The translations under genes and the position numbers were made by a program. The notes beneath the pieces were generated by a model. It saw only the letters and a program-made list of their open reading frames with translations. It did not search any database and was not told the DNA's origin. A stretch of DNA of 64,000 nucleotides from Pseudomonadota bacterium (lineage in GTDB: Bacteria; Myxococcota; JACRCW01; JAFGSX01), in assembly GCA_043821645.1 (NCBI GenBank), contig JBDRCO010000118.1, forward strand, positions 64,001 to 128,000, given 5' to 3'. This document shows, piece after piece, positions 7,044 to 61,614 of this stretch (position 1 is the first letter of the stretch; each line of letters begins with the position of its first letter).

Positions 7044-7380
7044 CCGATTCCGCTCCTTGAAACCGAGAACCCCGCGTCGGTCTCGAGCGAGGTCCGCTGG
7101 ATGTCCCAGACGCTCCTGGAACACCCAAAGTACATGGCTCCTGGCCGAATTCGTTGGCGACATGTATATCCCATTGAAACTGATTCATGGCTCATTTTCG
7201 CGATCGTACATGATCGGTCTAGCTGCTGAAGCTGCATACGGAAGGCACAGATATCGCATAAATATTCCATGCCAAGTGGAGTTCTTGGTCCTGTCGAACC
7301 GCTGTCTCGTCGACAAACTCAGGAAGTTTGCTCAGTTCGCTCTGAGTGTCTGTACCCAGTGAGCAGGCCAGGGCCAAACA

Positions 7381-34221: not shown

Positions 34222-34238
34222 GGTACGACCTTTTCTCG

Positions 34239-37200: not shown

Positions 37201-40200
37201 GCTGAACAGGATCAGACCCGTCACCGGATCGACCTGCATGCCGGCGGGCGCTCCCACCAGCAGGTAGGTGAGCGTGTCACCCTGGTCGATATCCTGGGCC
37301 TCGAGGGTGAAGGCGAAGGCGCCCTCCTCGACCACTGTGGCGTTGATGGCACTCGAGGTGAAGAAGGGCGGATCGTTGATGTTGACCACGGTCAGGCTGT
37401 GTACGAAAACCGTGCTACCACCGTTCGTGTCACTCGCCCGCAGGCGGATGGTATGCACGCCCACGTCCGCGTTGCCCGGCGTCCACTGCAGGACGCCGCC
37501 CACCAGGGTCAGACCCGCCGGGGCCGCCACCAGACTCAGGGTCACGCTGTCGCCAACGTCAGGGTCGCTGACCGACGGCGTCCAGCTCCAGGTGCTGCCC
37601 TCGGCCACGCTGGCGCCCGGCGCCGGACTGGCCCCGAACACGGGCGCGTCATTGACGTTGCTCACCGTCACGGTGAAGGACTGGGTGGCGCTCAGCCCCC
37701 CGGAGTCCGTCGCGGTGAGGGTCACGCCGTGGCTGCCCACGGCGGCGTTGTCGGGGAGCCAGCTCACGGCGCCGCTCTGGGCGTCGACGATCATGCCCGC
37801 CGGATGCACGGTCAGGGCGTAGCTCAGGCTGGCATCTTCCTCGTCCTGGGCGCTGGCCGCGTAGCTGTAGGCCTGGTCCTCGGTCGCTGCGGTCACCGGC
37901 ACGCTGCTGAACACCGGTGGGTCGTTGACCGCGATCACGGTGACCGAGAAGCTGTGGTGCAGCTCGCCGCCCTGGTCGTCGGTGATCAGGATGTCGAAGC
38001 CACGCAGACCGGTCTGGGCGCCGGTCGGGGTCCAGCTCACCTGGCCGCTGAACTCGCCCACGCTCGCCCCCACCGGCATGCTCACGGGCACGAAGCGGAT
38101 GGTCTGGCCGTCGGGATCGCTGGCCACGATGGCATAGCTGTAGAGCTGGTCCTCGGTGGCGGTGGTCACCGGCGTACTGGTCACCACCGGGGGCCGGTTG
38201 ACGTTGCCGATCGCAATGCTGGTGCTGCCGCTGGCCGTGCGGCCGTTGGCGGTCGCCAAGAAATTGGCCTGGTAGGTGCCGGACTGATCGTAGCCCGGGG
38301 TCCAGCTGAAGCGCCCCTGGGCCGGGTCAAAGCTCGCGCCCGCGGGACCGCTGGTCATGCTCAGCACCACGGTGTCGCCATCCGGATCGCTGCCGCTGAC
38401 GACGAAGGTCAGCAGCTGGCCCTCGGATCCACTGGCGCTGGCCGGCGCCGTCAGGCTGGGATCGCGATCGGTGTTGGCGATGTCCAGGGTGAGCACGCGG
38501 TTGTCGCGCGCGATGCTGTCATCGGCAAACACGGTGATGGAACGCGAGCCCGCCGCGTCGTAGGGCGGCGTCCAGGTGAACACGCCCGTGCTCGGGTGGA
38601 TGCTGGCCCCGGCGGGGAGGCCGGTGCCACCATAGCTGAGGCTGGGGCCGTCGACGTCGGTGGCTGCCAGGGTGAAGGTGAGCAGGCTGCCCTCGGCACC
38701 GCTGACGGTGCCACTCGGCGTCGGCGCTCCCAGCACCGGAGGATCGTTGACGTTGGCCACCGTGATGCTGAAGCTCTGCACCGCGAACAGCCCGCCGGCG
38801 TCGGTGACGCGCAGCACCACCGCATGGCTACCGACTTCGGCGTTGCCCGGCGTGCCGCTGAGTACCCCGGTCGCCGGTACGAAGCTGAGCCAGGCTGGCT
38901 TGGTCGTGGCCGACAGGGTGAGAACGTCGCCCAGATCCTGATCCACCGCCACCAGGGTGTAGCTGTACAGCAGGTCCTCGGTCGCCGCAGTGATGGCCAC
39001 CGACGAGATGGTCGGCGCGTCGTTGACGTTGGTGACCTGCAGCGTGAAGGCCTGGGTCGCCACACCGCCGCTCTTGCCGTCGCTGACGCGCACCGTCACC
39101 GGGTGGCTGCCGACCTGGGCGTTGGTGGGTGTCCAGGTGACCAGGCCCGTGGCCGCAACGATGCTCATGCCCGAGGGATTCTGGGTCAGGCTCCAGGTCA
39201 GGGTGTCCAGGTCGGGGTCGCTGGCCGCCGCGGTGTAGCTCAGCAGCTGGTCCTCGGCGGTTGTGGTCGGGGGGCTGGCCGTGAAGGCGGGCGCGCGGTT
39301 GGTGTCGTCAACCACGATGCTGATGGTTTCGCTGTCGCTCAGCGCCGTGGAATCGGTGACCGTGAAGGTGACGCTGTAGGTCCCGGCGTCCGCGTAGCCC
39401 GGAGTCCAGCTGAACTGCCCCGTCGCGGCGGTGAAGGTGGCGCCCCGGGTAAACGGGTTGTTTCCACCGCCTACGGCACTCAGGGTCAACACCTCTCCAA
39501 CGTCGGGGTCCGACGCCGTGACCACAAAGCTCAGCAGCGAGGCCTCGGCCACGTTGCGATCGCCTACCGGGTCCAGCACCGGCGGCCTGGGCACGTTGCC
39601 CACCGAAATGGTCACCAGCTCGCTGTCGGTGAGCAGGCCGTCGGTGGCAACAAACTCCACCTGGTACGAGCCCTCGTCGCCAAAGCCGGTGGACCAGGTG
39701 AAGGTGCTGCCGTCGAAGCTTGCGCCGCTGGGCAAGGTGCCTGGCGTCACCAGCACGGTGGGCGTGGTGCCATCGGGGTCGCTTGCCGACACCGCGAAGA
39801 TCAAAACGGCACCTTCGGCCACGCTCTGAGGACCGATGGGAGCCAGCACGGGCGGATCGTTGACGTTGGCCACGTTGATGCTGAAGCTCTGCTCGACCCA
39901 GGCACCGAGGTCGTCGGTGACGCGCAGGGTCACCGGGTGGTTGCCGACCTGGGCATTTCCCGGCACGCCCGAGAGCAGACCGCTCACGGGGTTGAAGGCG
40001 AGCCAGGCCGGGCGCAGCGGTGCGCTGAGGGTCAGGTGATCGCCGTGGAGCAGGTCGTCGTCGTCCGCGGTCAGGGTGTAGCTGTAGGGCAGATCCTGGG
40101 TGGCCCCGGTGACGGCCGTCGACGTGACCACGGGCGCGTCGTTGGTGTTGTGCACGGTGATGACGAAGTTCTGGAAGTCGGACTCCAGCAGGTCGTGCAC

Positions 40201-43200
40201 CTCGAGCTCGACCGCATGCGCCCCCACGTCGGCGTTGTTGGGCCGGCCCGGCAGGTTGGTCAGCGCACCGGTCGAGGTGTTGAACTGCAACCATGACGGC
40301 AACACGTTGGCCACCCGCGTGAGGCTGTCACCGACATCGGGGTCCACGACAACCAGGGTGTAGCTGTAGGGCGCGTCCTCGTCGACGTCGGTGACCTCGA
40401 CCGAGGTGATCTGCGGCGGGTCGTTGACGTTGCTGACGGTCAGGGTGAAGGTCGCCTCGACCTGCGCCGGAGTGGGGAGCTGGTCGTCGCGAACGCGCAC
40501 CGTGACACTCCACACGCCAACCTGGGCATCGTCGGCCAGCCCGCCGGGCGTGCTGAAGCTGAGCGCTCCCGTCGTCGGATTCACCACCAGGTTTGGCGGC
40601 GCTCCCGAGACCACGCTGAAGGTCAGCACCTCGCTCAGGCCCACGTCCGCGTCGGGATCGCCGGCGTGGAGCACCGCGCTCAGGGCCTGGTTCTCGGCCA
40701 AGCTGAGGTCGGCAGGCGCCGGGCTCCAGTACGGAGGGTCGTTGATGTTGGTGATGGTGCCGAACGAGAAGCTCACGGTGTCGATCGCACTTCGTCGGTC
40801 CTGCACCTGTATCGTCACCGAGGGCGTCGAGTTGGCGTCCGAGGGGCCCGGCGTCCAGGTCAGGGTCACCGACTTCTGATCTCCTGCGGGGGTCAGGGTG
40901 ATCGCAGGACCGGCCAGCGTGCTGTAACTCAGCGTCTCGGCGGCCCCGGGCGAATTCATGTCCGGGTCGTCCACGGCCAGGATCAGGGTCCACAGCGAGC
41001 CCTGGGTCGCGCTCTGAGCCCCCGGGCTGCTGGTGAACACCGGATCCTGGTTGATGTCGGTGATGGTCACCGTGTAGGCGCGCACCCCGGAGCCACCGAC
41101 GCCGTCACTGACCAGCAGGGTCACGGTCTGCGGCCCGGTCGCGGGATTGCCCGGGGTGCCGCTGAGCTGGCAGTAGCGCAGGCCGACATTGGTCACCGCG
41201 GTGGCGCTGAGCCACGACGGCACACCACCGGACAAGCTGCAGCTCAGGGTCTGGGACAGGTGGGCCACGTCCACGTCGTCGTCGTACAGCCGCGCCAGGG
41301 CCAGATAGGCCACTCCTTCGGTGCCGGTGAGCGGGCTGAGGGTACCCAGGCTCGGACTGTCGTTGACGTTGGCGACGGTGATGGTCCAGCCGAGGTCCGT
41401 CGTGCGCACGCCTGTGGCGCCGGCGGGCACCTGGTCGGTGACGCGCACCAGCACCGTGTTGGCGCCGATGTGGGCATCGCCCGGCGTCCAGCTGATCAGG
41501 CCACTGGCGCTGTTGATGGTCATGCCGGTGGGCTTCTGCACCAGGCTGTAGGTCAGCGTGGTGCCCTCCTCGTCGATCGCGTTGACGTCGAAGCTGTAGG
41601 CCGCGTCCTCGGTGGCCGTGGTCGGTGGCGCGCCCGAAGTGATCACGGGGGCGTCGTTGACCCGGGTCACGTTGAGGGTGAAGGCGCGGCTGGTGCAGGC
41701 TCCCGCTCCTCCCGCCACCGGGTCGCCGTCGCACACCCGCACCGTGGCGGCATGGCTACCCACCACCGCCTGGGCGTCGGTGGGAGTCCAGCGCACGTTC
41801 TGGCAGCGGTACTGGCCGCCGCAGCTGTACACCGCACCCGACGTGGCCAGGCCCGAGGGGCCGCTGACCACGCTGAAGCTCAGGCGCGACAGGTCCACGT
41901 CGTCGTTGTCGGTGAACTGGAAGTTGTAGGACCACAGCGTGTCCTCGGTGAGGGCGACGGTGGTCGGCGGTGCGTTGTAGGTCGGCGCGCTGTTGACGAT
42001 CGCCAGGTTGTACGGGGAGGCCACGCTGGGCAGCTGGTTGTTGGCCTCGCCACCCGGCCCCTCGTCGCGGGTGTTGCTGGCGTCGAGCAAGGCGCGCAGG
42101 TGCACAACGTTGTCAGGCTGGTTGGGCTTGAGCGCGGTGAAGGTGAAGGTGTGGGCGTAGGGCGCCTCGGCCACCGGTGACGAGGTCAGAGCCTGCTGCG
42201 CGGTGTAGGTGGTACCGCTGTCCGGTGGCGCATCCTGGTCCTTGTAGAAGCGCAGGTAGGACGTGGTCGAGCCCGTCCAGGAGGAGTTGAACTTGGTGAT
42301 CACCTGCACCGTCACCAGGTCGCCCTCGACGGGCTGCGCCGGGGTGACGCTGGCCACGTAGCCGGTGACGTCGGGCTTGGGTGTGATCTGGCAGGTGGGG
42401 CAGAAGCCTGGCGGCACATAGGGCGGCGGCTTGATGATGTAGGGGCCGGCCAGGGCATTCTGTGCGCCCGAGCGCAGGCGCAGGAACAGCGCGCTGGGGA
42501 AACCCTCCCACGGGTAGGCGCCGGCGTGGGGCATGACCTTGACGAAGGGCAGGGACACGACCTCGGTGGAGACGCCACCTGCGCCCAGAGCGCTCACCGT
42601 GTGACTCGAGTAGGGTGTGTCGCCGGCACCTGGTGGGTTGGCCGTGAGCTCTCCGCCGACACCGACGGTCACCGGCACCACGAAGGCGTCCAGGGTGGTC
42701 ACCGCCGACGAGGCACCGCCGCGGTTGAGCACGTGCGCGTAGACCGTGGCCGGCCCCGTGGGGTCGCCCAGATCGCCCAGCTCGAACAGCGGGTGCACGT
42801 AGATGGCGTCGCCCTGGGCCAGGCTGCGGCCGTAGGACTCGTTGTGAGCGTAGATCCAGGGATAGAAGATGCGCGGCTCGAGAAAGGTGTTCAGGAAGAA
42901 GGGCAGGCCAATGCTGTACACCCGGCTGTCGACGGCGCGGTAGCCGATGGGGCGGTAGGCCCGCACCTGGTAGATGAGCAGGTCCGCACTGCTCGGTGGC
43001 GCGCCGCGCGCCGTGACGTCGAATTCCAGCTCGAAGTCGCTGTCGGGCTCGCCGCGTCCGACGTTCCCCGTCGTCGTGATCTTGAAGTAGAAACGAGTCG
43101 TCCCCGACGACACCGCGGTGTAGGGAATGTCCCACAGGAAGTAGTCCGAGGCCGTGCTGTAGCTCGCGCCCAGCAGGCTGAGCCCGCAGCTGGAGAAGGT

Positions 43201-45927
43201 GTCGTTGGTGCACCGGCTCAGGCTGGCACTGTTCAGGCGGTTGGGCCGCTTGAGGTAGAGCTGGACACGGTCACCTTCGTAGTAGGACTTGGCCAGGTCG
43301 CAGACGGAGGTCTTGCCACCGGAGCACTGGCCGGGCACATCGGAGTACAGATCGTTGTCGCCGTAGGCCGCCAGAGCCTCGGTCACGCTGGGCTCGGTGG
43401 TGCCGGCGAGGACGACGGTGCCCTTGGCATGGCTCGAATACGCGCGGTTGGTGTCCGCGGCCACGAAGTGCGTGCGCGCCACAGTGCCCACGTCCGAGGT
43501 GCCGGGGATGAAGGCGAACAACGAGCCGTTGAAGGTGGAGACCCGGGTCCAGCCACTGCTGGCGTTGGCCGGGATGGGCGCGCCGGTGAAGGTGCGGCAG
43601 GCGCCGTCGCCGTCCCAGGCGCGCGCGGTCGAGAACAGGTAGATGTTGACCGGGTCGCACATCGAGGTGGTGGCAATGCCGCTCTGATAGGCCGGAAACA
43701 CATCCGCCACGTCGGAGGCAAAGGTCGGGTAAAAGCCCAGCACCCCGCGCATGCCACCGTAGGTCACGCCGGCCGGATCCGCGGTGGCGCCCTTGTCAAA
43801 CTGAAAGGGTCCGTAGTAGGCCGCCTGGTCTCGCCACTTGGGCGTGGTCGACGGGGCCACGTAGCCTGTACCCAGGTCGGCAAAGGTCAGCACCAGGGGG
43901 TCCACCGCCGCCGAGCCCACCCGGGTGAGCACGAGGATGTAGTAGGTGTCCGCAGCGGGCGTGGTGTAGACGATGCGCGAGCAACTGCCCACGCCGCTAT
44001 TGTCGTTGCTGGCCACCAGGGTGGCCCAGCTCCAGCTGAAGTTGCCCGGCTCGGGTCTGTCATAGGTCGGGCTGTCGTAGCGGTAGAGCTGCAGGTAGGT
44101 GTCGCCGGGGCAACCGCCCAGTCCATCGCCGGTCTCGAACTCCACCCGTCGCCCGTCGCCGATGCCGAAGATGTAGTAGTCGGTGGGGTCGCTCGCCGAC
44201 ACACCGGTGCGTATGCCCCCGGCGCGCGAGCTGACCGAGTACACGCCCGTGTTGTGCACCGAGCCGCCGTAGTGCATGAGCTCGGGCGCGGTGGTCGGGT
44301 CGTTGTTGGCCGGCTCGAGATCGTCCATGAAGCTGCGGTGGCGCAGGGCGTAGGCGTAGACCGCGGCATCGCCGCCGTTCTCCTCGACCTTGAGGATGTA
44401 GTGGTGCCCGGGCTCGACCAGCACGTCGTCGATGCGTGGGCAGGTGCTGGCGCCCCAGTCGTTGTTCTGGGCGATCTGCACCAGGCTCCCCGAGGCCAGC
44501 TTGTCGTACAGGGTGAGCACGGTGTCCTGGGTGCAGGCACCGTCCAGGTCCACCACGTCGAAGCTGTCGTAGGTCGCGGTGTAGCTGTAGAAGCCGTAGT
44601 AGTCGACCTCGCCCGCCGGGTACAGGCTGCCCGAAAGCACGCCATTGCCGACGATGGAGGGGGCCGTGGTGGTGCTGTTGTTGGCGGGTTCTGCTTCGAG
44701 GAAGCGCTTGTCGCCGTCCAGGTACAGCCCGCGCCCCGGGTCCACGATGGCCGGGTCGACCAGGTTCAAGGTCAGGCTCTCGCTGCTGCGCCCGTCGGGG
44801 GACAGCAGGTGCAGGTAGTAGTTGCTGAGCGTGGCGTTGTTGCCGTTCTCGATCACGCGCAGGTAGTACGGGCCGGTCGCGGTGGCCGTGTACAGGATGC
44901 GCGAGCACTGGTTGGTGCCACTGTCGTTGTTGTTGAGCACCACGGTGTTGCCGGAGTCGTACAGCGTCAGGTAGGTGTCGAATCCCGCCGTGCACGTGGA
45001 GTAGGACGACGACGAGGTGGCGGTCCACACCTCGATGCTGTCCCCGGCCTCGGCGTAGATCTGAAAGAAGTCAGCGTCCGCCACCGGCGAGATGCTGCCG
45101 CGTGTCGCGGTGCCCACCCGCAGGTAGTTGGGGTGCAGGTAGTCGTCGTTGAACTCGTACTCGGTGCTCAGCGGCGGCAACATGGGGCGAAACACCCAGT
45201 TGCCGGGCGGCCCCGCGGGCACCTGGAACGAAAAGGCCGGCCCCGCGCTGGCGTCCCAGTCCAGGTCGACCCAGTTGGGCAAGGTCGGCGGCGAGCAGGT
45301 CCAGCCAGCCGGGCAGCTCACCAGCTCGAGCATGCTGTCGATGCTGGTGGTCGGCAGCACGCGGGTCGCCCACATGTTCACCGGAACAGGCATGGCCGCG
45401 GCGTCCCCGGCCAGGTACTGCCGATTGTCGTGGAAGTACATGGCCGGCCAGTGCAGCAGGGAACCCGAGTTGGTGGTCACCGATGCCGCGAAGGCCTCGT
45501 CGTCACAGGCGCCGTAGTGCGGGGTGGGTGTAAAAAAGAACTCGCACGCGGTGATGAGCAGGCAGTTGGTCCCGAGCAACTGCGTGGTGATGCGTCCCGG
45601 CAGCGTCAGGGTCGAGTTCGCAGTGCTGTTCGAGGCACTCCAGGTGGGCATGTCGGTGCGATTCAGGGTGTTGGCTTCGCTGCACACGCCGCGCTCGTAG
45701 GAGACCCAGTCGACGCTCCAGAAGATGATCGAGGAGGCCTGGCCGGTGACGCCCACCGCCAGCGAGAAGTCGGCGCCAGCGTCGACATACTTGGTGCCCA
45801 CCGCGGTGATGGTGATGGCGCGCGCCAGTCCCGGCGCCAGCAGGGTCCCCAGCAGCGCGAGCCAGAGCAGCTCACCTCGCCACCGTCGTCCGCCCGGGAA
45901 ATGCCGCCTGCCGTTGCGCTCCACCAT
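34239..45927 (-). CDS. Giant surface adhesin (~3,900 aa) with PPC-like, cadherin/He_PIG-like and Fn3-like repeats; MYXO-CTERM anchor frameshifted at 34532-34537
   Basis: Signal peptide ending PGLARA; many VNDAP/VNDPP...ED..YSY...D.D...WTP repeats; acidic DVDNDALPD...DPDSDGLSN loop. The GCGC-TM-RRRRR tail lies in a different frame ending at 34239. Confidence 0.85.
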
Positions 45928-45955
45928 CGCCCACCTCACCTGCGGCCGACGCCGC

Positions 45956-48900
45956 CTACTGCACCACCACCCAGGCCGCACCGTACAGACCGTCGGGCAC
46001 CAGCAGCCCGCGACTCGTCGTCACCACGCGAGAAGGCCGCCGCAGCTCGGGCAAGGCCATGCGCGGATAGCTTGGCACGGCAGCACTCGCGTCGGTCGGC
46101 ATGTCGAGCACGTAGGCGCCATCGCTCTGCGTCGACACGAACAGCCGCGGCCCCAGATCGGCCAGGGCCTCAGGCGCCGAGGGAAGCTGCAGATCGACGC
46201 GCTGCGGCGCGCCACTGCTCCAACGGTAGACACCCGTCTCGTCGACACTCCCCAGGGAGCGACGTCCCGACAGCAGCAGGGCGTCGGGCGAACGCTGGGG
46301 TCGAAGCAGGTCGTACACGTAGCTGCCCTCGCTGCGGCGCTGCGCGCAGTCGAGGGCCAGACCCTGCCCCGCGGGCGCTTGCAGGGTCGTACCGAGTTCG
46401 ACCAGATACAGGCCAAAGGGCTGGGCGCCAAGCCAGGCCCTCGCGCCGTCGACAACGGGGGCGTAGATCTCGACGCTGTCCTCGAGGGTCACGGCCTCGA
46501 CGGCCCGCACCTCGAGCACACCGCTGTCCAGGTCCTCGGCGAGAGCGATGCGCGCCAGCGCCGTGGGGTGACAGGCAAAGCTGTCGTCGGCGCCGTTCTG
46601 CAGAGTCAGCAGCAGGTCGAGACCCACCGCCTGCAATGATCCCGCGGTGAGGTAGGTGAAGCTCTGACTGCCTGTGGACCGGGCCAGCGCCGGCAGCAGG
46701 CTGCGCAGGCGCTCGGGCAGGTCGGTGTCGACCCGCTGCAGCTCGCCGCTGCCCGTCGCGGAACTGTGCGCGCTGAACCACAGCCGCCCGTAGACGTCGA
46801 TGGCCAGCACGCCGAGTCCGGGCATCGTCGCGGCCGAGGTCAGCCACGGGGCGCCAAAGGGAAAGCGCGCGTGCTGCGTGCTGCCGCTGGGATCGATGGC
46901 CAGGGATTGCGGCACGCTGCGCACCCGTTGAGCCGCGGTCTGGCCCAGCGCAACCTGGCGCAGCGCGGGAGCAAAGGACAGCACGTCGGCGCCTCCTCCC
47001 TCCACCAGCCAGGCGTTTGCGCCGTCGACCAGAGCCTGGGTCACGGGCAGGCCCCAGAACAGGCGCTGCGTTTCACCGATCAGATCTTGCCCCAGGTCCA
47101 CGGCGCAGCGGCGCTGTACCTCCGCTCCCTGCTCGGTGGTGACGCACAGACCAGGCGCCACCGCCTCGAGCGCGCGGATCGAGGCTCCCGCTTCCAGTCC
47201 GAGTCGGCCCACGAAGGAAGGCGCCGCCCAGGCCGGAGCGCGCAGGAAGTACAAGCCGGCGGACGCTTGCATGGCGTCGACGCTCTCGGCGGCAATGGCC
47301 ACCAGATCATCGAAGGCCGCCAGCCTGACAGCGCGGGCTGCGATCGGAAGCGGAACCGGCAGCCGCGGTGCCAGGCAGCCCAGCTCGCCCGGCGCCACAC
47401 CGCCGCCCGGGGCAGCGGCCAGGGCTGCGGCGCAGGCGTCGAGATCGATGGCCTGCACGCCACTCTCCTCGAGCGCGATCCACAGCGTGTCGCCGATCAG
47501 CTCGAGGTCCGGCGGTGCCGTCGCAAAACCACCGAAGGAGCCGAGCAGATCGTCGGGGGCGTCGCGGCGCACCACCTGCAGGGTGTAGGGCTGGGCCGCG
47601 CGCAGCAGGATCAGAGCCTGGCCCCAGCTCAGTACGCGCTCGGTGGGAGCCGTGATGCCGCCGGGCAGGTGGTGGCGGGGGGCGCTCGCGAAGTCGTCGC
47701 GCACCAGGGTGATCCCGCTGGCCGTGCCCAGCACCAGCACGCCCGGTCGCGCTGCCAGACTGCGCACCACCGCGCCGACGTCCACCGAGCGCGAGCTGCT
47801 CTCGGCGCCATCGACGTCGACCATCACCTCATGCACGCCCAGGGCGTCGCCGGCAGCAAAGAAGCGGTTGCGGCCTGCCACGACGTCGTGCGAGGGCAGG
47901 GTGAGGGTCTGCGCCGCTCCGTGATCGGGCACCACGGCGAGGCCGCCACTTCCCAGGGCGTAGGCCCGCGCCGCACCGCTGCGCGCCACGGCCACACCGC
48001 GCGGCACGTTCTCGACCTCACTGCCCAGGATGGGCGTCACCTCGTCGGGCCGCACCGCCAGCGCCTGGGACCAGCACGACGTGTTGCCGACGGCGTCGAC
48101 CGCGGCCACCTGCAGGTAGACATCGGTTCCGGGACGCAGACCGTTGAGCACCAGCGCAGGCAGCACGGTCTCGACGGGGCTCGGCCCCTCGAGGGCAAAG
48201 CGCGCGCTCTCGAAGGGGTCGTCCTCGACCCGTTCTCCGTGCGGGCAGCGCGCGGTGGCCAGGCTCGCTGGCCTCGGCACCAGACTGTAGGATACGAACC
48301 ACGCGGCCGCGTCGTCGTCGTCAGGCAGCGGGGCGGGCTGCTGCCAGCGCAGCTCGACGCGCTCGCGACCGACCCGGGCCTGCAAGCCCTCGGGCTCGGC
48401 CGGCGCCAGGGTGTCGCGCACGATCTCCAGCTGCAGGGCCTCGCTGCGGTTGTCGAGAGCGTCGCGCGCGACCACCTCGAGGCGCCACAGCACGCGGGCG
48501 GCGTCCACTTGCGCCGGCAACAGAGACAGGGTCGCGTGACAGGCCCCACTGGCGTCGGGAAGCTCGAGGCCCAGGACGTCGCTGCCGTCGGGGCGCCGAC
48601 GCGTGATCTCGAAGATCTCGCCGGGGCGCTGCAGCGGGTCACAGCTGAGGATCTCGATCTCGATGCTGTCGTCCTGGGTCTGCGCCGGCACCGCCGCGAT
48701 CTGCGGACGCGGCGGGGGCGTGCGGTTCACCGCGCAGCGGGTGGGGAGCTGCAGGTGCTGGCCCGCGACGAGGGTCATGCTGAGAGGTGGTGGGAGATCA
48801 AAGCCCGGGCGCAGGAACTCGATGCTGTAGTCGCCAGGCTGGATGTTGATGAAGCCGAAGCGGCCATTGCTGTCGGTCTGCTGACTCTGCACGCGCAGAT

Positions 48901-49198
48901 CGCCGTTGTCCGACGCTGTACCGAGGCCGCGCAGCACCACCTCGAAGCCCGCGTGGTCGCCGACGAGCTGAGCGCAGCTCGCCGCCTCGGGCCACTTGAG
49001 CTGGCCCTGGGCGTCCTCCTCGTAGGGGGCGTACACCGCCTGTATCGCCCCATCGACCCGTGCCGCGGCCTGGTAGATCAAGGGCGTCCGCTCATCGTAG
49101 GGATTGCGCGGAGAAAAGCAGGCCCCCGCGGTGAGCAGCGCCGTCAGCAGGACAGCCCGGCGCAGGTGCGGGGCGACAGGCAAGGGCGAAAGCAACAT
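45956..49198 (-). CDS. Lipoprotein with carboxypeptidase-regulatory-like/Fn3 domains and beta-propeller repeats
   Basis: Lipobox LTAGA-C; TDSNGRFGFINIQPGDYSIEF; LNGLRPGTDVYLQVAAVDAVGN. Ends 28 bp before the adhesin start. Confidence 0.7.
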   Translation of the reverse strand: MLLSPLPVAPHLRRAVLLTALLTAGACFSPRNPYDERTPLIYQAAARVDGAIQAVYAPYEEDAQGQLKWPEAASCAQLVGDHAGFEVVLRGLGTASDNGDLRVQSQQTDSNGRFGFINIQPGDYSIEFLRPGFDLPPPLSMTLVAGQHLQLPTRCAVNRTPPPRPQIAAVPAQTQDDSIEIEILSCDPLQRPGEIFEITRRRPDGSDVLGLELPDASGACHATLSLLPAQVDAARVLWRLEVVARDALDNRSEALQLEIVRDTLAPAEPEGLQARVGRERVELRWQQPAPLPDDDDAAAWFVSYSLVPRPASLATARCPHGERVEDDPFESARFALEGPSPVETVLPALVLNGLRPGTDVYLQVAAVDAVGNTSCWSQALAVRPDEVTPILGSEVENVPRGVAVARSGAARAYALGSGGLAVVPDHGAAQTLTLPSHDVVAGRNRFFAAGDALGVHEVMVDVDGAESSSRSVDVGAVVRSLAARPGVLVLGTASGITLVRDDFASAPRHHLPGGITAPTERVLSWGQALILLRAAQPYTLQVVRRDAPDDLLGSFGGFATAPPDLELIGDTLWIALEESGVQAIDLDACAAALAAAPGGGVAPGELGCLAPRLPVPLPIAARAVRLAAFDDLVAIAAESVDAMQASAGLYFLRAPAWAAPSFVGRLGLEAGASIRALEAVAPGLCVTTEQGAEVQRRCAVDLGQDLIGETQRLFWGLPVTQALVDGANAWLVEGGGADVLSFAPALRQVALGQTAAQRVRSVPQSLAIDPSGSTQHARFPFGAPWLTSAATMPGLGVLAIDVYGRLWFSAHSSATGSGELQRVDTDLPERLRSLLPALARSTGSQSFTYLTAGSLQAVGLDLLLTLQNGADDSFACHPTALARIALAEDLDSGVLEVRAVEAVTLEDSVEIYAPVVDGARAWLGAQPFGLYLVELGTTLQAPAGQGLALDCAQRRSEGSYVYDLLRPQRSPDALLLSGRRSLGSVDETGVYRWSSGAPQRVDLQLPSAPEALADLGPRLFVSTQSDGAYVLDMPTDASAAVPSYPRMALPELRRPSRVVTTSRGLLVPDGLYGAAWVVVQ

Positions 49199-49439
49199 CG
49201 TGTCACTCCAGCATGAGAGATGTGTCTACCTGCGCATCCGCCACACCGCGGGATACGCAGGTTCAGACCGATAGAGCTGTGGCCATTAAATATACACGAA
49301 CTGCGCAGTGACGCTCGCTGTGCGGCGGCGGCGAAAAAGATCATCTCTTCATGACGTCAAAATTGCCCCCATCTTGATATGGATGGGCAGTCGATCATCT
49401 TTTTGTCCGGAACCTGGCGCGACGCAAGGGAGCCCTTCG

Positions 49440-50957
49440 ATGACCAAGATCCAGCGCAACACCTTCGTGCAGCAGCACCAGAACCAGAGCGTCGACCTCA
49501 ACAAGCTCGAGCGCAAGGTGGGCGGCGACCCCGCTGCCAAGGCCGACCTCGACGACGCCGGCGTGAGCATGGACAAGCTTCGCCAGGCCGACCGCAACCG
49601 CGACGGCAAGCTCGACAGCAGCGAGGCCTTTCGCCTGGCCGACAACTACGACCGCGATGGCTCGTCGCAGAGCTTGATCGCCGTGGACAGAGCCGGCCAG
49701 CAGACCCAGGCCGGCAAGGCCGCGGGAGCCCTCGGCGCCTTGCTGGCCAGCCGGGACCTGCAGCCCGACAAGCCTGCCAACGACGACATCCTGTTCGTGG
49801 GCATGAACCCCGATGCCAAGCACGAGGCGCGCAACCTGGCGCAAAATACCAGCGGACGCATGACCACCATCCTCGACGGCAGCGCCGGCAACGACCAGAT
49901 CAAGGTGGGCAGCACCACCTATGACCTGAACACCCCCGAGGGCCGCGGCGGCTTCGTCGGCACCCTGGGTCTGCCTGCGGATCAGTCCCAAAAGGTCGCC
50001 GACGCCATTGCCTCGGGTGGCGACGACGCCAAGGACGAGCTGGCGCAGATCGCGCAGGTCTGGGCCAAGGCCGAGAAGGGGGACAGCATCCCATCGCGGC
50101 TGGTGCTGTCGGGTCATCACGTCGGCTCGGCCATCTGGGGCGACGACAACGGCCGCCTGACCTGGGATTCGATGAAGAAACTCAGCGACGCCATGCCCGA
50201 GGCCGCCAAGCAAGTGCAGGATCTCAACATCTCCGCCTGCTACTCGGGCGGCGCCGATAAGGCCCAGAAATACCAAGGTATTTTCCCAAACGTCAAAACC
50301 ATCTGGGCCTATTCAGGTTCGGCGCCTGGCTCCTGGTCCGGCGCCATGGCGCACCAGAAATACTGGGAGCGCGCCACGCGCGGCAACCAGACGGATCTGC
50401 AGCCCACCGTGGATCAACTCAAGGGCTGGAGCACCCGCAAGGCCGAGAATATCGACGTCCGCGCCGTGGATCAGGCGGCGGCCTACAATGGCCCGCCGCT
50501 GGCGGATCTGCGCCAGGGCATCAACCAGGGCGAGGCGGTGTACCAGCAGTACTTCAGCGGCGAGCGTCCGGTCGAGGACCGCCAGAACGGACCCCTGCGC
50601 GGCTACTACAACCAGATCCAGGCCGCCTTGCAGCACCCGGATCTGCCGCAGAGCGAGCGCCAGAACCTCGAGGGTCTGCGCGATCAGTGCATTCGCCGGC
50701 TGTTTTACGAAAGCCACATCGGGCACCGCTTTCAGGAGACCCACCAGGCGCAGATCCAGCAGGGGTATCAAGCACTTGGCATGACACCCCCGGACTTTGG
50801 CAGCCTCTCCAGGGCCGATGCCCAGCAGGTCATACAGCAGTTCCGCGACAAGCTCGACAGCTCGCCTGGCGCCGCGCCGGCGGCGCAGAACCTGCTGCCC
50901 TTGCTCAACGGTTTGTGGAACCTGGACGCGCAGGTCATCCCGGAGACCTGGATCTGA
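49440..50957 (+). CDS. EF-hand-like N-terminal domain + putative caspase/CHAT-like (clan CD) cysteine peptidase
   Basis: GGGAG RBS; DRNRDGKLDSSE loop; LVLSGHH and LNISACYS dyad-like motifs; no signal peptide. Confidence 0.7.
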   Translation: MTKIQRNTFVQQHQNQSVDLNKLERKVGGDPAAKADLDDAGVSMDKLRQADRNRDGKLDSSEAFRLADNYDRDGSSQSLIAVDRAGQQTQAGKAAGALGALLASRDLQPDKPANDDILFVGMNPDAKHEARNLAQNTSGRMTTILDGSAGNDQIKVGSTTYDLNTPEGRGGFVGTLGLPADQSQKVADAIASGGDDAKDELAQIAQVWAKAEKGDSIPSRLVLSGHHVGSAIWGDDNGRLTWDSMKKLSDAMPEAAKQVQDLNISACYSGGADKAQKYQGIFPNVKTIWAYSGSAPGSWSGAMAHQKYWERATRGNQTDLQPTVDQLKGWSTRKAENIDVRAVDQAAAYNGPPLADLRQGINQGEAVYQQYFSGERPVEDRQNGPLRGYYNQIQAALQHPDLPQSERQNLEGLRDQCIRRLFYESHIGHRFQETHQAQIQQGYQALGMTPPDFGSLSRADAQQVIQQFRDKLDSSPGAAPAAQNLLPLLNGLWNLDAQVIPETWI

Positions 50958-50965
50958 GCCCCCGC

Positions 50966-51532
50966 ATGACACAGGCCTCGCGCATCGCATGCGGGCTCGT
51001 CGCACTGGCTGCCCTGGCCGCCTGCGCCACTGCCCCGCGCACCGAATCCGTGGCGGATCCGGCACCTGTCTGCAACTTCGAATCCGGCCTGCGCGCGGTC
51101 GAAGCCGCCCCGGTCGAGCTGCGGGTCACCCCTGCCCTTGCAGCCCTCGCCCAGGCCTGCCCCGGGGTCCTGGGCAACCTGGCCCAGGCCGCGGACCAGG
51201 CGCGCCAGCTGCCGCGAGCCGAACGCGCGCGCATCCTGGGTGAAGCCGCCAGCCAGGCCCTGCCCCCGGCCTGCGCCACCACCTCGCCAGGCGCTCCAGC
51301 CAGCAGCGTGAGCTGGGGCTGCCCACCGCCCGAACCCATGCGGCTCGAAGCGCAGCTGCTCGCCGATCTCGACGCGGGCACCTACCTGTTCGCCATCGCC
51401 GTGCGCAGTCGCCTGGCTGGCGCGCAGCAGCTGAGTACCTACTCGGTCAAGCTGATCGACAACCTCATCCTGGCTGCTGCCCTGGAGGGCGAGGCAGCCC
51501 GAACCGGCGTCCGCACGACGCCGCCCCTGTGA
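50966..51532 (+). CDS. Small helical lipoprotein (candidate immunity/partner protein)
   Basis: Lipobox LAALAA-C; starts 8 bp after the upstream stop. Confidence 0.7.
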   Translation: MTQASRIACGLVALAALAACATAPRTESVADPAPVCNFESGLRAVEAAPVELRVTPALAALAQACPGVLGNLAQAADQARQLPRAERARILGEAASQALPPACATTSPGAPASSVSWGCPPPEPMRLEAQLLADLDAGTYLFAIAVRSRLAGAQQLSTYSVKLIDNLILAAALEGEAARTGVRTTPPL

Positions 51533-51537
51533 GTGCC

Positions 51538-53037
51538 ATGTCTGACAAGCGGATGTTTCTGGCCCTGTTGACCACCTGCAGCCTGCTGAGCTTTGCCTGC
51601 CTGCCAGGCACCTCCGTGGAGCCCGACGACGCAGGCCTGGACGCCGGCGCCAGCGATCTCGCCAGCGCGGATCTCACCGGCCCTGACCTCAGCGGCCGTG
51701 ACCTCACCGCGATGGACACCAGCACGGGCAGCGATCGCGCCGTGGCTGCCGACAGCGCTGGCCACGACGCCAGCTCGGGCGTGGATGCCGGCGGCGGCTT
51801 CGACGCTACCCTGCCCACCGGCACCGAGCTCAACGACGGCTGGATTGGCGGCGCCTGCGCCACCCCGGCGGACTGCGACCTGAGCGACTTCAACGGTACT
51901 GCCGAGTGTGAAACGACGGGCTTCGACAATGGCTTCTGCACCCAGGCCTGCTTTGAGAGCACCGTCATCACGGGTCGCTGGGTGTGCCCGGATTCCACCA
52001 GCACGGGCTACGGCGCGGGCACGGGCTACACCGTGACCCGCTGCATCACCACCACCGACGGCAGCCCCACCTGCGTCGCCCAGTGCGACTACGAGCAGTC
52101 GGCCAGCGGTTGCCGGCCGGGCTACGTGTGCGTGCTCAAGCAGCGTCACAACGAGCCGGATTCGATCTTCCCGGTGTGCCTGCCCGAGGCCACCCAGACC
52201 TGGCCCGGCGCCACGCCACCCGCCAACGACATCGGCGCCGCCTGCACCGCGGACACAGGCTGCGCCAACCTGTCGTGCATGGACAGCCTGCCCGGGGGCT
52301 ACTGCACCAAGACCATGTGCAACGTGGCCGGCTGCCCGAGCGGATCGGCCTGCTATCGCGTGTCCAGCGCTGGCGACACCGCCTGCATCAAGACCTGCAC
52401 CCAGACCAGCCAGTGCCGGCAGGGCGAGGGTTACATCTGCGACAGCGACCACACCTGCTGGCCCGATACCACCCAGCCACCGCCGGTGCAGTGGGACCAG
52501 ACCGTGGGCGCGCCGGGTTGCGCCGCGGCCTGGCCCAACAATCTGTCGCCCTGCGACCTCGTCCCGGACGACTACCTCGTCATCGACAAGTCGGCGCGCA
52601 ACCTGGCGCTGTGCAACGCCGGCAATCTGGTGCAGAACTTCAACATCGGCATCACCCCTGCGCCTTACGACGTGGGCGACAAGGTCAGGGAGGGCGACGG
52701 CCGCACCCCCGAGGGCGTGTTCTACGTTGCCTCGCTGATCCCCAACTCGAGCTACTACAAGGCCTTCTTGATCAGCTACCCGGACAGCGCCGACGCCGAT
52801 CGTGGCCTGGCCGCCAATCCGGCCCTGATCAATCAGGGCGAACACGACGCCATCGATACCGCGCAGCAGGCCTGCGACGTGCCACCGCAGACCACCAGCC
52901 TGGGCAGCTACATCGAGGTGCACGGCAACTACCCGGGCTACGACTGGACCGTGGGCTGCGTATCGGTGAGCGACGCCAACATGGACCTGCTATGGGCCGT
53001 CATCGGTGAAGACGACAGCATCGTGATCAACCCGTGA
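51538..53037 (+). CDS. Cys-rich lipoprotein with a C-terminal L,D-transpeptidase (YkuD, YafK/DpaA-like) domain
   Basis: Lipobox SFA-C; IDKSAR.L, DKVREGDGRTPEG, ISYP, IEVHG...DWTVGCVSV. Confidence 0.85.
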   Translation: MSDKRMFLALLTTCSLLSFACLPGTSVEPDDAGLDAGASDLASADLTGPDLSGRDLTAMDTSTGSDRAVAADSAGHDASSGVDAGGGFDATLPTGTELNDGWIGGACATPADCDLSDFNGTAECETTGFDNGFCTQACFESTVITGRWVCPDSTSTGYGAGTGYTVTRCITTTDGSPTCVAQCDYEQSASGCRPGYVCVLKQRHNEPDSIFPVCLPEATQTWPGATPPANDIGAACTADTGCANLSCMDSLPGGYCTKTMCNVAGCPSGSACYRVSSAGDTACIKTCTQTSQCRQGEGYICDSDHTCWPDTTQPPPVQWDQTVGAPGCAAAWPNNLSPCDLVPDDYLVIDKSARNLALCNAGNLVQNFNIGITPAPYDVGDKVREGDGRTPEGVFYVASLIPNSSYYKAFLISYPDSADADRGLAANPALINQGEHDAIDTAQQACDVPPQTTSLGSYIEVHGNYPGYDWTVGCVSVSDANMDLLWAVIGEDDSIVINP

Positions 53038-53088
53038 GCGCGCCAGCGCGAGACGCTGTCCCGCAGTGACCGATAAAAGGAGCTTCCG

Positions 53089-54156
53089 ATGACCTCCATC
53101 AACCGCCGCGACTTCATCCGCCAGCATTCAAACCAGGACCTGGATCTGCAGAAACTGCGTGACAACCCGGCGGCGCGCCGCGCCCTCGAAGAGGCGGGCT
53201 CCTCGGTCGACGACATCGCCCGCGCCGACTTCAACCGCGACGGCAAGATCAGCGGCGACAACGAGCTGGACGTGCTGTTCGACCGGGTCGACCGCCTGGA
53301 CACCGACGGCAACGCCAACACCGCGATCTCGGTCGATCGCGCGGGCCAGGCCACGCCGGCAGGCAAGGTGGTCAACACCCTCGGCCTGCTGTTCGAGAAC
53401 AGGCCGCAGCGGTCCATCAAGGACCTCCAGGGCAGTGTGGGCGTCGACGGCCGCAACAACGCAGACGACGTGCGGGCCGTGCAGCAGCGGCTCAAGGACC
53501 TGGGCTTTGACGTCAGCGTCGACGGCCAGTGGGGCCGTGGCACGCAGACCGCCGTGCGTGTCTTCGACAGCATGATCAACGGCCACGACGCTGTGAGCAG
53601 CGCCCAGGACACGGTGCGCCCGGGCTCGGCCCTGCACAAGGCGCTGAGCTCGGACAAGGCACCCCGGTGGGAGCGCATGCCGGCCAGTGGCACCGGTTTC
53701 ACCAACATCGACCGCGACGGCTACAGCTACGGTAGCAACCGCATGGCCGACGTCATCCGCGACGCCGGGCAGCGCTACCAAACCAGCTACGGCGCCAACC
53801 ACAGCAGCGCCGCGAACATCGGTACCAACGACGTGTCACGCAAGGAAGGCGGCGCCAACCGCGACCACGACTCGCACCAGGCCGGGCTGGACCTCGACGT
53901 CAGCCTGCCCAACACCTCCGGTGAGCACGGCAGCAAGGTGGGCTGGCGCAACTATGACCGCGAGGCCTCCTACCACATGGTCAAGGCCTTTGCCGAGGAT
54001 CCCCGGGTCGATCGCGTGATCCTCACCGACACCCGCCTGATCCAGTGGGCCAAGGACACCAACCAGGCCTGGGCCGACAAGATTGTCACCGGCGGCAGCG
54101 TCCACAACAACCACATGCACATCGACGTGTCGGGCACGGGCTATCCGGCGGACTGA
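53089..54156 (+). CDS. EF-hand-like N-terminal domain + peptidoglycan-binding domain + MepA-like murein endopeptidase
   Basis: AAGGAG RBS; DFNRDGKISG; DVRAVQQRLKDLGF...VDGQWGRGTQTAV; HDSHQAGLDLD and HNNHMH zinc-ligand motifs. Confidence 0.85.
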   Translation: MTSINRRDFIRQHSNQDLDLQKLRDNPAARRALEEAGSSVDDIARADFNRDGKISGDNELDVLFDRVDRLDTDGNANTAISVDRAGQATPAGKVVNTLGLLFENRPQRSIKDLQGSVGVDGRNNADDVRAVQQRLKDLGFDVSVDGQWGRGTQTAVRVFDSMINGHDAVSSAQDTVRPGSALHKALSSDKAPRWERMPASGTGFTNIDRDGYSYGSNRMADVIRDAGQRYQTSYGANHSSAANIGTNDVSRKEGGANRDHDSHQAGLDLDVSLPNTSGEHGSKVGWRNYDREASYHMVKAFAEDPRVDRVILTDTRLIQWAKDTNQAWADKIVTGGSVHNNHMHIDVSGTGYPAD

Positions 54157-57819: not shown

Positions 57820-58602
57820 CTACCAGTCCGTGCGCTTGAGCTCAGCCAGGAATTCTTCCTTGGTCACGTAGCCCTTGCGCGCGAGGGTGCGCATGAGCGC
57901 CCAGAACTTGCGTTCGAGGGCGTCGATGCGCTCGATGTCGACCTGGGAGATCACCGAGTTGTTGCGCCCCAGGCGCCGTGCGGCCTCGAGCTCGGCCAGG
58001 GCTGTGCGATCGGTGACCTCGTCGCTGAGCTCGACGACAGGCGGGATCGCGCCATCGGGCCCCATCTCCACCACTTCCTCGACGCCCCCCCTGCGGAACA
58101 GGGTCATGTTGTCCTGGCCAGGTCTTTCGATCTGGAAACGCAGGGGCGCGATCTGCACCCGGTCGCCGCGGTAGTAGCGCTGCACGGCCTGGTTGATGCT
58201 GGAGATCTGCGCCAGCACCGGATGCACGGTGGCGCCGGTGGTGAACTCGAGTTCCTCGAGGGCGGCGAGGTTGAGGGGATCGCTCATGGCCACGGTCAGA
58301 TGCTTGCGCCCCTTCTCGATCTTGAGATCGATGGGGATCAGGTCGTGGCTTTCACACAGACCCACGGGAACCAGGCGCAGCGAGTCCTTGCTGATGCTGA
58401 CCCGGGACAGATCCACCATGGGGATGCCCAGGCTCTCGCTCAGCACCTTGGTCAGCAAGCCCTCGGAGATGAAGCCCTTGGCCACCATGGCGACGCCGAG
58501 GCGGTGGCCCCACTGGCGCTGGTAGGCCAGGGCCGAGTTCAGCTGCTCCTCGTCGATGACGCCGCCCTCGATCAGGATCTCGCCGAGTTTTTTCTTGGCC
58601 AT
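57820..58602 (-). CDS. Stand-alone MshEN/GspE-N (T2SSE_N) domain protein without ATPase
   Basis: KLGEILIEGGVIDEEQLNSALAYQ-RQWGH-RLG...; LTVAMSDPLN; no Walker motifs. Confidence 0.9.
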   Translation of the reverse strand: MAKKKLGEILIEGGVIDEEQLNSALAYQRQWGHRLGVAMVAKGFISEGLLTKVLSESLGIPMVDLSRVSISKDSLRLVPVGLCESHDLIPIDLKIEKGRKHLTVAMSDPLNLAALEELEFTTGATVHPVLAQISSINQAVQRYYRGDRVQIAPLRFQIERPGQDNMTLFRRGGVEEVVEMGPDGAIPPVVELSDEVTDRTALAELEAARRLGRNNSVISQVDIERIDALERKFWALMRTLARKGYVTKEEFLAELKRTDW

Positions 58603-58899
58603 GCGCTGTCCGCCGTCTCTGTTCCAGGCCGCTAGATCGGCCTCGATGCCGTCGACAAGCCGTCTCGAAAGACAGATCTTGACGCGAAGGAACCCGATGT
58701 TTCCACTGTCTTGCACGCAGTGTCCTCGCGCCCGCGCTGTCCGTCAAGAAGTCCAGCACCGGGGGGCTTGTACACGGGCAGTGAGCGCGGCTTGTGGGGC
58801 CCCATTCTTTTTGCTAGTAGTGCGCATCCTAAATGGGCGCTCAGGCTGCAGGGCAGGCTCGGTCCTGCAACGGCGCGTCCGAAGCGATGGAGCACGGTC

Positions 58900-60897: not shown

Positions 60898-61614
60898 ATG
60901 GGATCGGATGAACGCCGCGGTGGACCTCGCCTGGACCTGCGCCTGCGCGCGCGCATCGTCGACGACGAGGCGTTCCCGGAGGCCGAGGCCACCGACATCT
61001 CGCCAGGTGGCGCACGCCTCGAAAGCCGGGTGCCGCTGGATCCAGACTCCGTGATCCACCTGTCCATGGACGCCGGCGACGGCGAGCCAGTGGAGGCCGT
61101 GGCCACGGTGGCCTGGTGCCGACCGCGCAAGGGGGTCTCGCTGCGCAAGCTCTACGACATCGGCGTCAGCTTCGACACCGAGTGGTTGAGCCAGAAGCGT
61201 GGCAAGCTCGGGCGTGCCCTGGGACGTATCTTCTCGTTCAGCGAGTTCGAGCCTGCGCGCGCCTACGAGCGCGTGCTGGTGACCCTGCGTGCCGACAGTG
61301 TCGACGGGGCAGACCAGGCCCTCACCGTGGTCGACCTGTCCGAGGGCGGCATGCAACTGCGCTGCGAGGACGCCCTGGGCGCGCAGGTGCACACCGGCGC
61401 CACGGTGGTGGTCGAGATCCCGGCCGGCGATACCACCTACAGCATCGATGGCGTCATCATGTGGGTGGCCCAGCCCGAGGGCGCGGATCGCACGCTCTTC
61501 GCCTCCTTTGGCGTGCGCTTCAACGATCTCGGTGATGATGAGCAGCGCGTGTTGCGCGAGATCATGAACGGCGAGATGACCCCCAACGGGATCTCGATCT
61601 TCCTGGCTGGCTGA
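60898..61614 (+). CDS. Tandem PilZ-domain protein
   Basis: RGGPR...DISPGG and RAYER...DLSEGG (RxxxR / DxSxxG twice). Confidence 0.9.
   Translation: MGSDERRGGPRLDLRLRARIVDDEAFPEAEATDISPGGARLESRVPLDPDSVIHLSMDAGDGEPVEAVATVAWCRPRKGVSLRKLYDIGVSFDTEWLSQKRGKLGRALGRIFSFSEFEPARAYERVLVTLRADSVDGADQALTVVDLSEGGMQLRCEDALGAQVHTGATVVVEIPAGDTTYSIDGVIMWVAQPEGADRTLFASFGVRFNDLGDDEQRVLREIMNGEMTPNGISIFLAG

Follow-up and report, generated by a model that had tools for sequence, protein, structure and literature searches.

A predicted EF-hand-pair-like domain at the N-terminus of leaderless, mostly lytic enzymes of Myxococcota

Introduction

In the MIX, FIX and PAAR proteins of type VI secretion systems (T6SS) and the LXG proteins of type VII secretion systems, a constant N-terminal region is joined to varied toxic C-termini. 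Several such proteins occur per genome and they have no Sec signal. Here, a domain with the same properties is described from a genome of the phylum Myxococcota (assembly GCA_043821645.1, the source genome). It is the common N-terminal domain (ND) of approximately 105 residues of two proteins, protA and protB, whose genes lie at 49440–54156 of the window, which is the whole 64,000-nucleotide stretch that was analysed (contig JBDRCO010000118.1, positions 64,001–128,000). The ND differs from the domains named above in four ways: the source genome has no T6SS, no secretion gene is linked to the ND, the ND can be in tandem, and wall-binding modules replace it. The domain is new with respect to Pfam and NCBIfam, and the architecture that it heads is of a known kind. 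A 2012 survey of polymorphic toxins does not contain the term “EF-hand”, and “dockerin” and “Myxococcus” are absent from the 300,000 characters of it that were searched (PMC3482391).

EF-hand pairs are the sole structural neighbours that were found for the ND. In both, a canonical 12-residue loop lies between two helices, and the loop acids and glycine are near-invariant. The ND differs in that it falls below all Pfam cut-offs, its structural scores are weak (Z 3.7; template modelling score, TM, 0.3–0.5), its second loop is non-canonical, and its model includes additional short strands as well as a long helix at the C-terminus. In addition, the ND is always fused, N-terminally, to hydrolases. 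Type I dockerins are likewise small, duplicated calcium-loop modules found on many hydrolases, and the ND has weak matches to Dockerin_1. Cellulosomal dockerins are usually C-terminal, whereas the ND is N-terminal, on leaderless proteins, and the source genome has no cohesin at E≤0.01. The RTX proteins of type I secretion undergo calcium-triggered folding outside the cell, and by analogy the ND may also be unfolded at cytoplasmic calcium levels and fold outside. Pfam scans show no nonapeptide repeats in ND proteins, however; the RTX region is C-terminal, and no ABC transporter or membrane-fusion gene recurs beside ND genes.

Two further comparisons concern the cell wall. LysM and PG_binding_1 modules occupy the N-terminal slot of the ND in homologues of protA, are often repeated and have the same wall-hydrolase partners. 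They have no sequence or fold likeness to the ND. As protB carries the ND and PG_binding_1 together, the ND is not simply a substitute for the latter. The Tae and Tge effectors of T6SS and the X-Tfe effectors of the Xanthomonas type IV secretion system (T4SS) include the same enzyme types as the ND proteins, namely murein endopeptidases, amidase-like Cys/His enzymes, lytic transglycosylases and deacetylases. Lipoprotein genes also adjoin ND genes in some loci, where they are candidates only for immunity. X-Tfe carry a C-terminal signal domain, and neither delivery system is found in the source genome.

Predatory and competitive myxobacteria lyse other bacteria, and the enzymes that are delivered at the contact site are largely unidentified. 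[quoted passage not shown] With the ND as a marker, dozens of leaderless enzymes that degrade the wall can be listed as candidate effectors, several of them in each genome and from lineages mostly without T6SS. The ND is also a handle for finding their export route, and the idea of calcium control outside the cell is testable. In the reading preferred here, with a probability of roughly 45%, the ND serves as a calcium-dependent module for folding, activation or targeting and acts outside the cytoplasm on leaderless, envelope-degrading effectors exported by a route other than T6SS.

Sequence and predicted fold of the ND

The ND of protA (copy A, residues 1–105) is encoded at 49440–49754 on the forward strand and that of protB (copy B, residues 1–105) at 53089–53403, also forward. 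BLASTP aligns these residues with 48 of 109 positions identical (44%, E 9e-22), so that the resemblance of the two N-termini, noted by eye in the original prediction, is borne out. Outside residues 1–105, BLASTP found no significant alignment between the proteins. The C-termini were thought to be unrelated and they are, as protB ends in PG_binding_1 and Peptidase_M74 and protA in a domain without a family that has a His/Cys pair. The ND itself matches no characterised family: it has no Pfam or NCBIfam match at threshold, and searches of PDB sequences gave no match. No paper describing it was found in a literature search that covered mostly articles outside subscription journals, without supplements.

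Two acidic loops mark the domain. Residues 51–62 of protA read D-R-N-R-D-G-K-L-D-S-S-E, which is a canonical 12-residue EF-hand calcium loop (D-x-N-x-D-G-x-L-x-x-x-E). The loop of protB and of many relatives has the acidic residue of position 12 one place later, at position 13. The second acidic loop of copy A spans residues 68–74 and is of the D-x-x-D-x-D-G type. Across 41 NDs, the near-invariant positions are F9, D51, D55, G56, F64, D68, D71 and G74; two of these are core phenylalanines, and the others are the acidic and glycine residues of the two loops. Among the five ND copies of the source genome M1, T2, I4 and F9 are invariant. Profile scores for known calcium-binding families are low: EF-hand_5 reaches 16.2 bits on protA (Pfam cut-off 25.9), protB matches no Pfam EF-hand family at E≤0.1, and Dockerin_1 (cut-off 22.9) gives 14.5 bits on protB and 13.4–13.6 bits on two other copies in the source genome.

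Molecular modeling was done with AlphaFold2. An alignment of 69 sequences produced a compact model of the ND with a predicted local distance difference test score (pLDDT) of 90.6 and a predicted TM score of 0.80. It comprises short strands at residues 2–5, 17–19, 57–59 and 78–82 and six helices, the C-terminal one being long. Residues 1–10, which include the first strand, have a mean pLDDT of 93. A single-sequence model of protB was unusable (pLDDT 38.9). Searched with Foldseek against the PDB, the ND model had no match at E≤0.001 and TM was approximately 0.3. An exhaustive VIA structure search gave a best Z of 3.7 over residues 1–74, and the Atlas model of protB residues 1–101 aligned to bacterial EF-hand-pair clusters with a TM of 0.44–0.51. 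EF-hand proteins top each of these searches with weak scores, and no other neighbours appear. From these matches, the ND model is that of a divergent EF-hand-pair-like domain without a solved close relative. The ND is best explained as a self-folding and probably calcium-binding domain that has not been described previously.

A dockerin-like role would explain some of the same features. Here, the ND would be a calcium-dependent plug that docks onto a scaffold or carrier, such as a surface protein or a pilus tip, to form a multi-enzyme lytic complex. A small calcium module on many hydrolases follows the logic of cellulosomal dockerins, tandem ND copies exist, and the weak Dockerin_1 matches of the ND (E 0.04–0.09) improve in some relatives, the best (P0022) reaching 25.5 bits, above the cut-off. 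Furthermore, a passage of one paper proposes that pilus tips are loaded with effectors (PMC12075869). The dockerin scores of the window proteins are nonetheless under the cut-off and fold searches place EF-hand proteins, not dockerins, on top. In addition, the source genome, which is 94.7% complete, has no cohesin (PF00963) match at E≤0.01, and no scaffold-like neighbour recurs. This explanation is considered very improbable.

Distribution and fusion partners

The source genome (7.07 Mb) encodes five ND copies: the two in the window and one on each of three other contigs (C46, C35 and C94). The five proteins carry at least four unrelated C-termini. The protein on C46 is a paralogue of protA, that on C35 has a long region without a family, and that on C94 shares with three other clusters a domain in which Cys and His motifs are conserved.

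A profile made from the five copies was used to search 1.84 billion cluster representatives and found 469 proteins at E≤1e-3, 56 of them at E≤1e-10. The weaker matches include many ordinary proteins with multiple EF-hands or dockerin repeats. When the best 150 representatives were tested with a stricter model made from 41 NDs, 64 of them held a near-full ND, so that the domain is present in at least 64 protein clusters. Among the sampled genomes of the phylum, the ND is present in 38 of 401, belonging to 21 of 154 genera. Judged by source names and Atlas taxa, the relatives belong to Myxococcota, and metagenome-assembled genomes (MAGs) labelled Archangium are among them. The domain is thus not confined to the two paralogues of the window. 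Five loci in MAGs of Verrucomicrobiae and Syntrophaceae were rejected as relatives, as only the EF-hand loop aligned (23–39 residues).

The position of the ND is nearly fixed. It starts within 10 residues of the annotated protein start in 60 of the 64 clusters, and the exceptions are two probable mis-called starts, one internal ND and one ND preceded by a signal-like segment. In 14 of the 64 clusters the ND is in tandem.

For the fusion partners, 65 representatives with a long N-terminal match were picked by eye and scanned with Pfam. A recognisable C-terminal family is present in 28 of them, and these families amount to approximately 14 Pfam enzyme families. The most common are Peptidase_C93/transglutaminase-like domains (seven proteins) and Peptidase_M74 with PG_binding_1 (five), and CHAP follows in two, both below cut-off. 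TGL, GH3, PGA_cap, Polysacc_deac_1, SLT and SLT_2 (the last below cut-off) are each found once, as are M23 with two PG_binding_1 domains, GH75, an ATLF metalloprotease, calpain C2 and an Ldh_2 fragment. PG_binding_1 is present in nine of the 65. The other 37 have nothing, or EF-hand- and dockerin-type matches only. The recognised partners are mostly peptidoglycan or envelope hydrolases rather than housekeeping enzymes. A constant N-terminus on varied, mostly lytic C-termini confirms the polymorphic-effector architecture that had been proposed from the window, with five copies in the genome and the breadth of enzyme families among the representatives. The members of the family are probably antibacterial weapons.

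In protB (355 amino acids, 53089–54156, forward strand, coding to 54153; an open reading frame with Pfam matches), the ND is followed by PG_binding_1 at residues 125–159 (53461–53565; 32.2 bits, cut-off 23) and by the catalytic region of Peptidase_M74, the MepA-like family, at residues 196–345 (53674–54123; 35.9 bits, cut-off 25). The latter match covers profile positions 15–181 of 240. As both domains score above their cut-offs, the peptidoglycan-binding and MepA-like assignments made previously hold. The NCBIfam MepA equivalog gives only 32.6 bits against a cut-off of 272, and protB is therefore not an orthologue of E. coli MepA.

The catalytic domain of protA and its probable exchange of N-terminal modules

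The open reading frame of protA (505 amino acids, 49440–50957, forward strand, coding to 50954) encodes the ND, a linker and a 394-residue domain with a conserved His/Cys pair. This domain has no Pfam match at E≤0.1, no NCBIfam match and no PDB sequence match at E≤1. With the catalytic domain (49773–50954) as query, 212 homologues were found at E≤1e-5, and 121 true ones were examined. His226 (in L-S-G-H) and Cys267 (in A-C-Y-S-G-G) each follow a hydrophobic strand and are kept in 116 of 116 true homologues; 15 aligned sequences without the pair are unrelated proteins with an ND and PG_binding_1. The Atlas model of protA aligns only weakly with the clostripain family (TM 0.41), a Peptidase_C11 cluster (0.41) and CHAT (0.30–0.35). 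The His/Cys pair is kept but the structure alignments are weak and there is no family match. Therefore the caspase-like identity given to protA in the original prediction is plausible, not proven, and the enzyme is best described as a candidate clan-CD or caspase-like peptidase.

The N-terminal module of these enzymes varies. The ND is carried by 36 of the 121 homologues and absent from 85. Among the 116 that are of tree length, LysM is found in 50, PG_binding_1 in two and nothing recognisable in 28, a class that includes probable fragments. In a FastTree phylogeny of these 116 tips, rooted at the midpoint and with several poorly supported nodes, the label of the N-terminal module changes 15 times by parsimony and the ND falls into eight pure groups. 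The tree indicates that the module has probably been exchanged more than once; it gives no order of events.

A large clan-CD-like family of homologues of this domain (P0194–P0286) occurs among relatives of Myxococcus and Archangium. Its members are also leaderless and begin with a short conserved motif of the M-P-x-R-I-x-N-R-P type, which is followed by a Pro/Thr linker and LysM.

Export signals and the question of a secretion tag

Export signals were sought with a simple hydrophobic-segment score, a mean Kyte–Doolittle value of at least 1.8 over 11 residues within the first 45. Only one of the 64 ND representatives reaches this threshold, and the stretch in question is a helix inside the ND. 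In contrast, 54 of 57 members of a control family, that of a neighbouring lipoprotein, reach it. The earlier view that neither protein has a signal peptide is thus supported. A Tat signal was considered and rejected, as only protB contains the R-R-x-F-I motif, without a hydrophobic region after it, and the consensus of the family shows just one basic residue.

The original prediction went further and proposed that the ND may itself be the secretion tag. Its account of a constant N-terminus with varied lytic C-termini stands, whereas the role of tag is not supported as stated, for several reasons. The ND has a compact predicted fold, and it is repeated in the tandem proteins; binding modules often repeat and signals do not. 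Homologues of protA without the ND are equally leaderless, with a hydrophobic N-terminal segment in one of 82, and export of protA-type enzymes therefore needs no ND. Finally, the ND of one lineage (P0025/P0220, which is also present in genome G039) comes after approximately 110 residues that include a hydrophobic, signal-peptide-like segment, an arrangement suggesting that the ND functions after export. The clan-CD-like family is leaderless whatever its N-terminal module, and a non-classical export route is thereby suggested for the group.

A related explanation is that the ND is a trafficking adaptor that is read in the cytoplasm by a dedicated machine, as MIX, FIX or LXG domains are, with a flagellar- or type-III-type gate or some other apparatus as the reader. 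The near-fixed position at the protein start with a conserved extreme N-terminus, the lack of a Sec-type segment and the presence of several ND proteins with varied lytic C-termini per genome all favor an adaptor. So does the state of the Myxococcus T3SS, with its unknown lysis effectors (PMC12428579, PMC12075869). The same evidence that counts against a tag, namely tandem copies, equally leaderless homologues with LysM, PG_binding_1 or no module, and a lineage with a signal-like segment, also counts against an adaptor. Type-III secretion signals are disordered, whereas the ND is predicted to be folded from its first residues; here, a calcium-free cytoplasmic state could differ from the model. 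Genomic evidence on both sides of this explanation, which is regarded as somewhat unlikely, is given in the next section.

Candidate secretion routes

The source genome has no match to TssC (PF05943), Hcp (PF05638), Phage_sheath_1 or VirB4. At 94.7% completeness, this gene content excludes T6SS, contractile injection systems and VirB4-type T4SS as routes in this genome. Gene-presence tables for the 401 sampled genomes were intersected by eye and a Fisher test was applied to the overlaps, the values of which overstate significance owing to the non-independence of related genomes. Of the 126 genomes with TssC, two are among the 38 that bear the ND and 124 among the 363 others. The analogy to MIX and FIX, as domains of T6SS, fails here. 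The ND and T6SS are nearly mutually exclusive over the 401 genomes, a pattern that may be purely phylogenetic.

The adaptor explanation allows a flagellar- or type-III-type gate. FHIPEP export-gate genes are found in 37 of the 38 ND-bearing genomes, and flagellin, which is present in 133 genomes overall, occurs in 25 of the 38 and in 108 of the 363 others. FHIPEP is present in 349 of the 401 genomes, and its co-occurrence with the ND therefore does not discriminate. The flagellin association may likewise be purely phylogenetic, and three near-complete genomes (G243, G244 and G265) have the ND without flagellin.

The source genome has two FHIPEP genes. One belongs to a flagellar cluster with genes for MotAB, FliM, FliO, FliP, FliQ, FlhB, FlhA, FlhF, FlhG and FliA, and flagellin is encoded on the same contig. 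The other encodes an orphan paralogue of FlhA and lies next to nuo genes. No injectisome-type gene was seen within the 20 kb examined around each FHIPEP gene (contig C86, 40000–59999, locus L072; contig C70, 52000–71999, locus L073). The orphan paralogue also adjoins a gene for a large leucine-rich-repeat protein. Beside 23 ND genes at 22 loci, no secretion or chaperone gene recurs, and no gene of any kind adjoins all of them; the only recurrent neighbour family is that of the Cys-rich lipoprotein.

A more specific proposal is that the ND- and LysM-tagged leaderless enzymes are together the cargo of a new export or delivery pathway in Myxococcota lineages without T6SS, perhaps through a flagellar- or type-III-type gate, with the ND acting as a calcium-triggered ratchet and activation switch when the N-terminus emerges. 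This is considered unlikely. If true, these enzymes would be the effectors that degrade peptidoglycan in contact-dependent predation and have so far been missing, or would functionally replace T6SS weapons.

A proposed calcium-dependent module outside the cytoplasm

In the preferred reading, the ND would lack calcium and have a loose fold in the cytoplasm, where calcium is low, and would fold on meeting calcium in the periplasm, the medium or the target cell. Once folded, it could activate the enzyme joined to it, stabilise it or anchor it. In sister enzymes, LysM or PG_binding_1 stands in the architectural slot of the ND. The export route would be something other than T6SS, contractile injection or VirB4-type T4SS and need not read the ND. 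The unit in the window, where two ND enzymes bracket two lipoprotein genes, would be one instance of such a system. The domain, its spread, position and fusions, the lack of signal peptides and the predicted fold are results, whereas we infer calcium binding, extracytoplasmic action, the antibacterial role and the roles of the lipoproteins in this reading.

The ND proteins could instead stay in the cytoplasm until damage or programmed death. The ND would then sense an influx of calcium and free or activate the enzyme, in endolysin-like autolysis, abortive infection or developmental lysis and not as a weapon. A calcium sensor of this kind agrees with the EF-hand-type loop, with the lack of an export signal and with a source genome devoid of T6SS, contractile-sheath and VirB4 genes. 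Moreover, caspase-like, calpain and transglutaminase-like C-termini are enzyme types of cell-death systems too. Several results point the other way. No PADLOC defence model matches any of the six proteins tested, no holin-like or phage-like neighbour recurs, and a fold search of BFVD with the ND was empty at E≤0.001. PG_binding_1, LysM and murein hydrolase domains act outside the membrane, the lineage with a signal-like segment exists, and four loci link ND genes to exported lipoproteins. A cytoplasmic death device is deemed improbable.

A number of findings weigh against the calcium-dependent module as well. In the 41-sequence alignment, the second loop departs from the canonical EF-hand pattern, and the EF-hand and dockerin scores of the ND fall under the Pfam thresholds. 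The near-absolute N-terminal position of the ND, with conserved first residues, fits a recognition tag, because a plain binding module would not need to begin at residue 1. A short N-terminal motif is likewise conserved among the LysM-type sisters, so that the extreme N-terminus, including the first strand of the ND, may be the true export signal.

Other such points come from the lipoproteins. Those encoded downstream of protA and of its paralogue on C46 are not alike. Genes with a lipobox make up 11 of 42 ND neighbours and 26 of 195 other genes at the same loci (p 0.058), or 3 of 42 and 9 of 195 with a stricter pattern (p 0.45); these counts come from a simple gene caller that mis-called the smaller lipoprotein gene of the window and skipped two low-GC loci (L062 and L063). 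Immunity is therefore possible but unproven. In addition, 26 of 30 loci of the Cys-rich lipoprotein family, from 27 genomes, have no ND within 1.5 kb, and the two that do are both in the source genome, with the proviso that flanks of this size miss ND genes that point away, as in genomes G029 and G039. The linkage to the ND is thus real here but not general.

Organization of the locus

The four genes at 49440–54156 have the same direction and are tightly packed, with successive spacings of 8, −4 and 51 bases. The ATG starts of protA and protB both correspond to residue 1 of the ND family alignment. Each is preceded by a Shine–Dalgarno-like sequence read on the forward strand: AAGGGAG at 49426–49432, 7 bases ahead of the ATG of protA, and AAAGGAG at 53076–53082, 6 bases ahead of that of protB.

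The first lipoprotein gene begins 8 bases past protA (50966–51532, forward strand) and, from its stop-free translation, encodes a predicted lipoprotein of 188 amino acids with the lipobox Cys, assigned by pattern, at residue 20. It has no Pfam, NCBIfam or PADLOC match and is a candidate immunity or accessory protein. The second gene overlaps the first by 4 bases (51529–53037, forward strand). Its product is a predicted Cys-rich lipoprotein of 502 amino acids with a C-terminal YkuD L,D-transpeptidase domain (46.6 bits, cut-off 23.4). Both lipoproteins are candidates for self-protection or for remodelling of the producer's own wall.

The Cys-rich region of the larger protein covers approximately 230 residues, and 24 Cys are invariant in the alignment of the whole-protein family. 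This family has 77 homologues, nearly all of which combine the Cys-rich region with YkuD, and it is found in 27 of 381 genomes, 10 of them ND-bearing. The C-terminus is either YkuD or a domain of approximately 230 residues without a family; the gene at 4973–6673 (reverse strand) of locus L050 encodes a member. A paralogue with 47% identity over 325 residues (E 3e-81) adjoins the ND gene on contig C94, and thus both full-length copies of the Cys-rich domain in the source genome are beside ND genes. The four loci with such an adjacent pair are these two and one each in G029 and G039.

Upstream of protA is a divergent gene for a predicted lipoprotein of 1080 amino acids (45956–49198, reverse strand). 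It overlaps by 26 bases a gene for a 4010-residue protein (33949–45981, reverse strand) that has 16 He_PIG, Big_9 and cadherin-like repeats. Together the two look like a giant surface adhesin operon beside the effector genes. Downstream, a Wzy_C gene runs towards protB and has its stop codon 3 bases away from that of protB. A few kb further, the window encodes an MshEN-domain protein (57820–58716, reverse strand) and a PilZ-domain protein (60898–61614, forward strand), both domains being cyclic-di-GMP receptor types. At the other end of the window, a 2106-residue protein (843–7163, reverse strand) matches SpvB, TcdB_toxin_midN, FG-GAP and RHS-repeat families and, by these matches, is a putative Tc-toxin B/C-like or Rhs-type polymorphic toxin shell.

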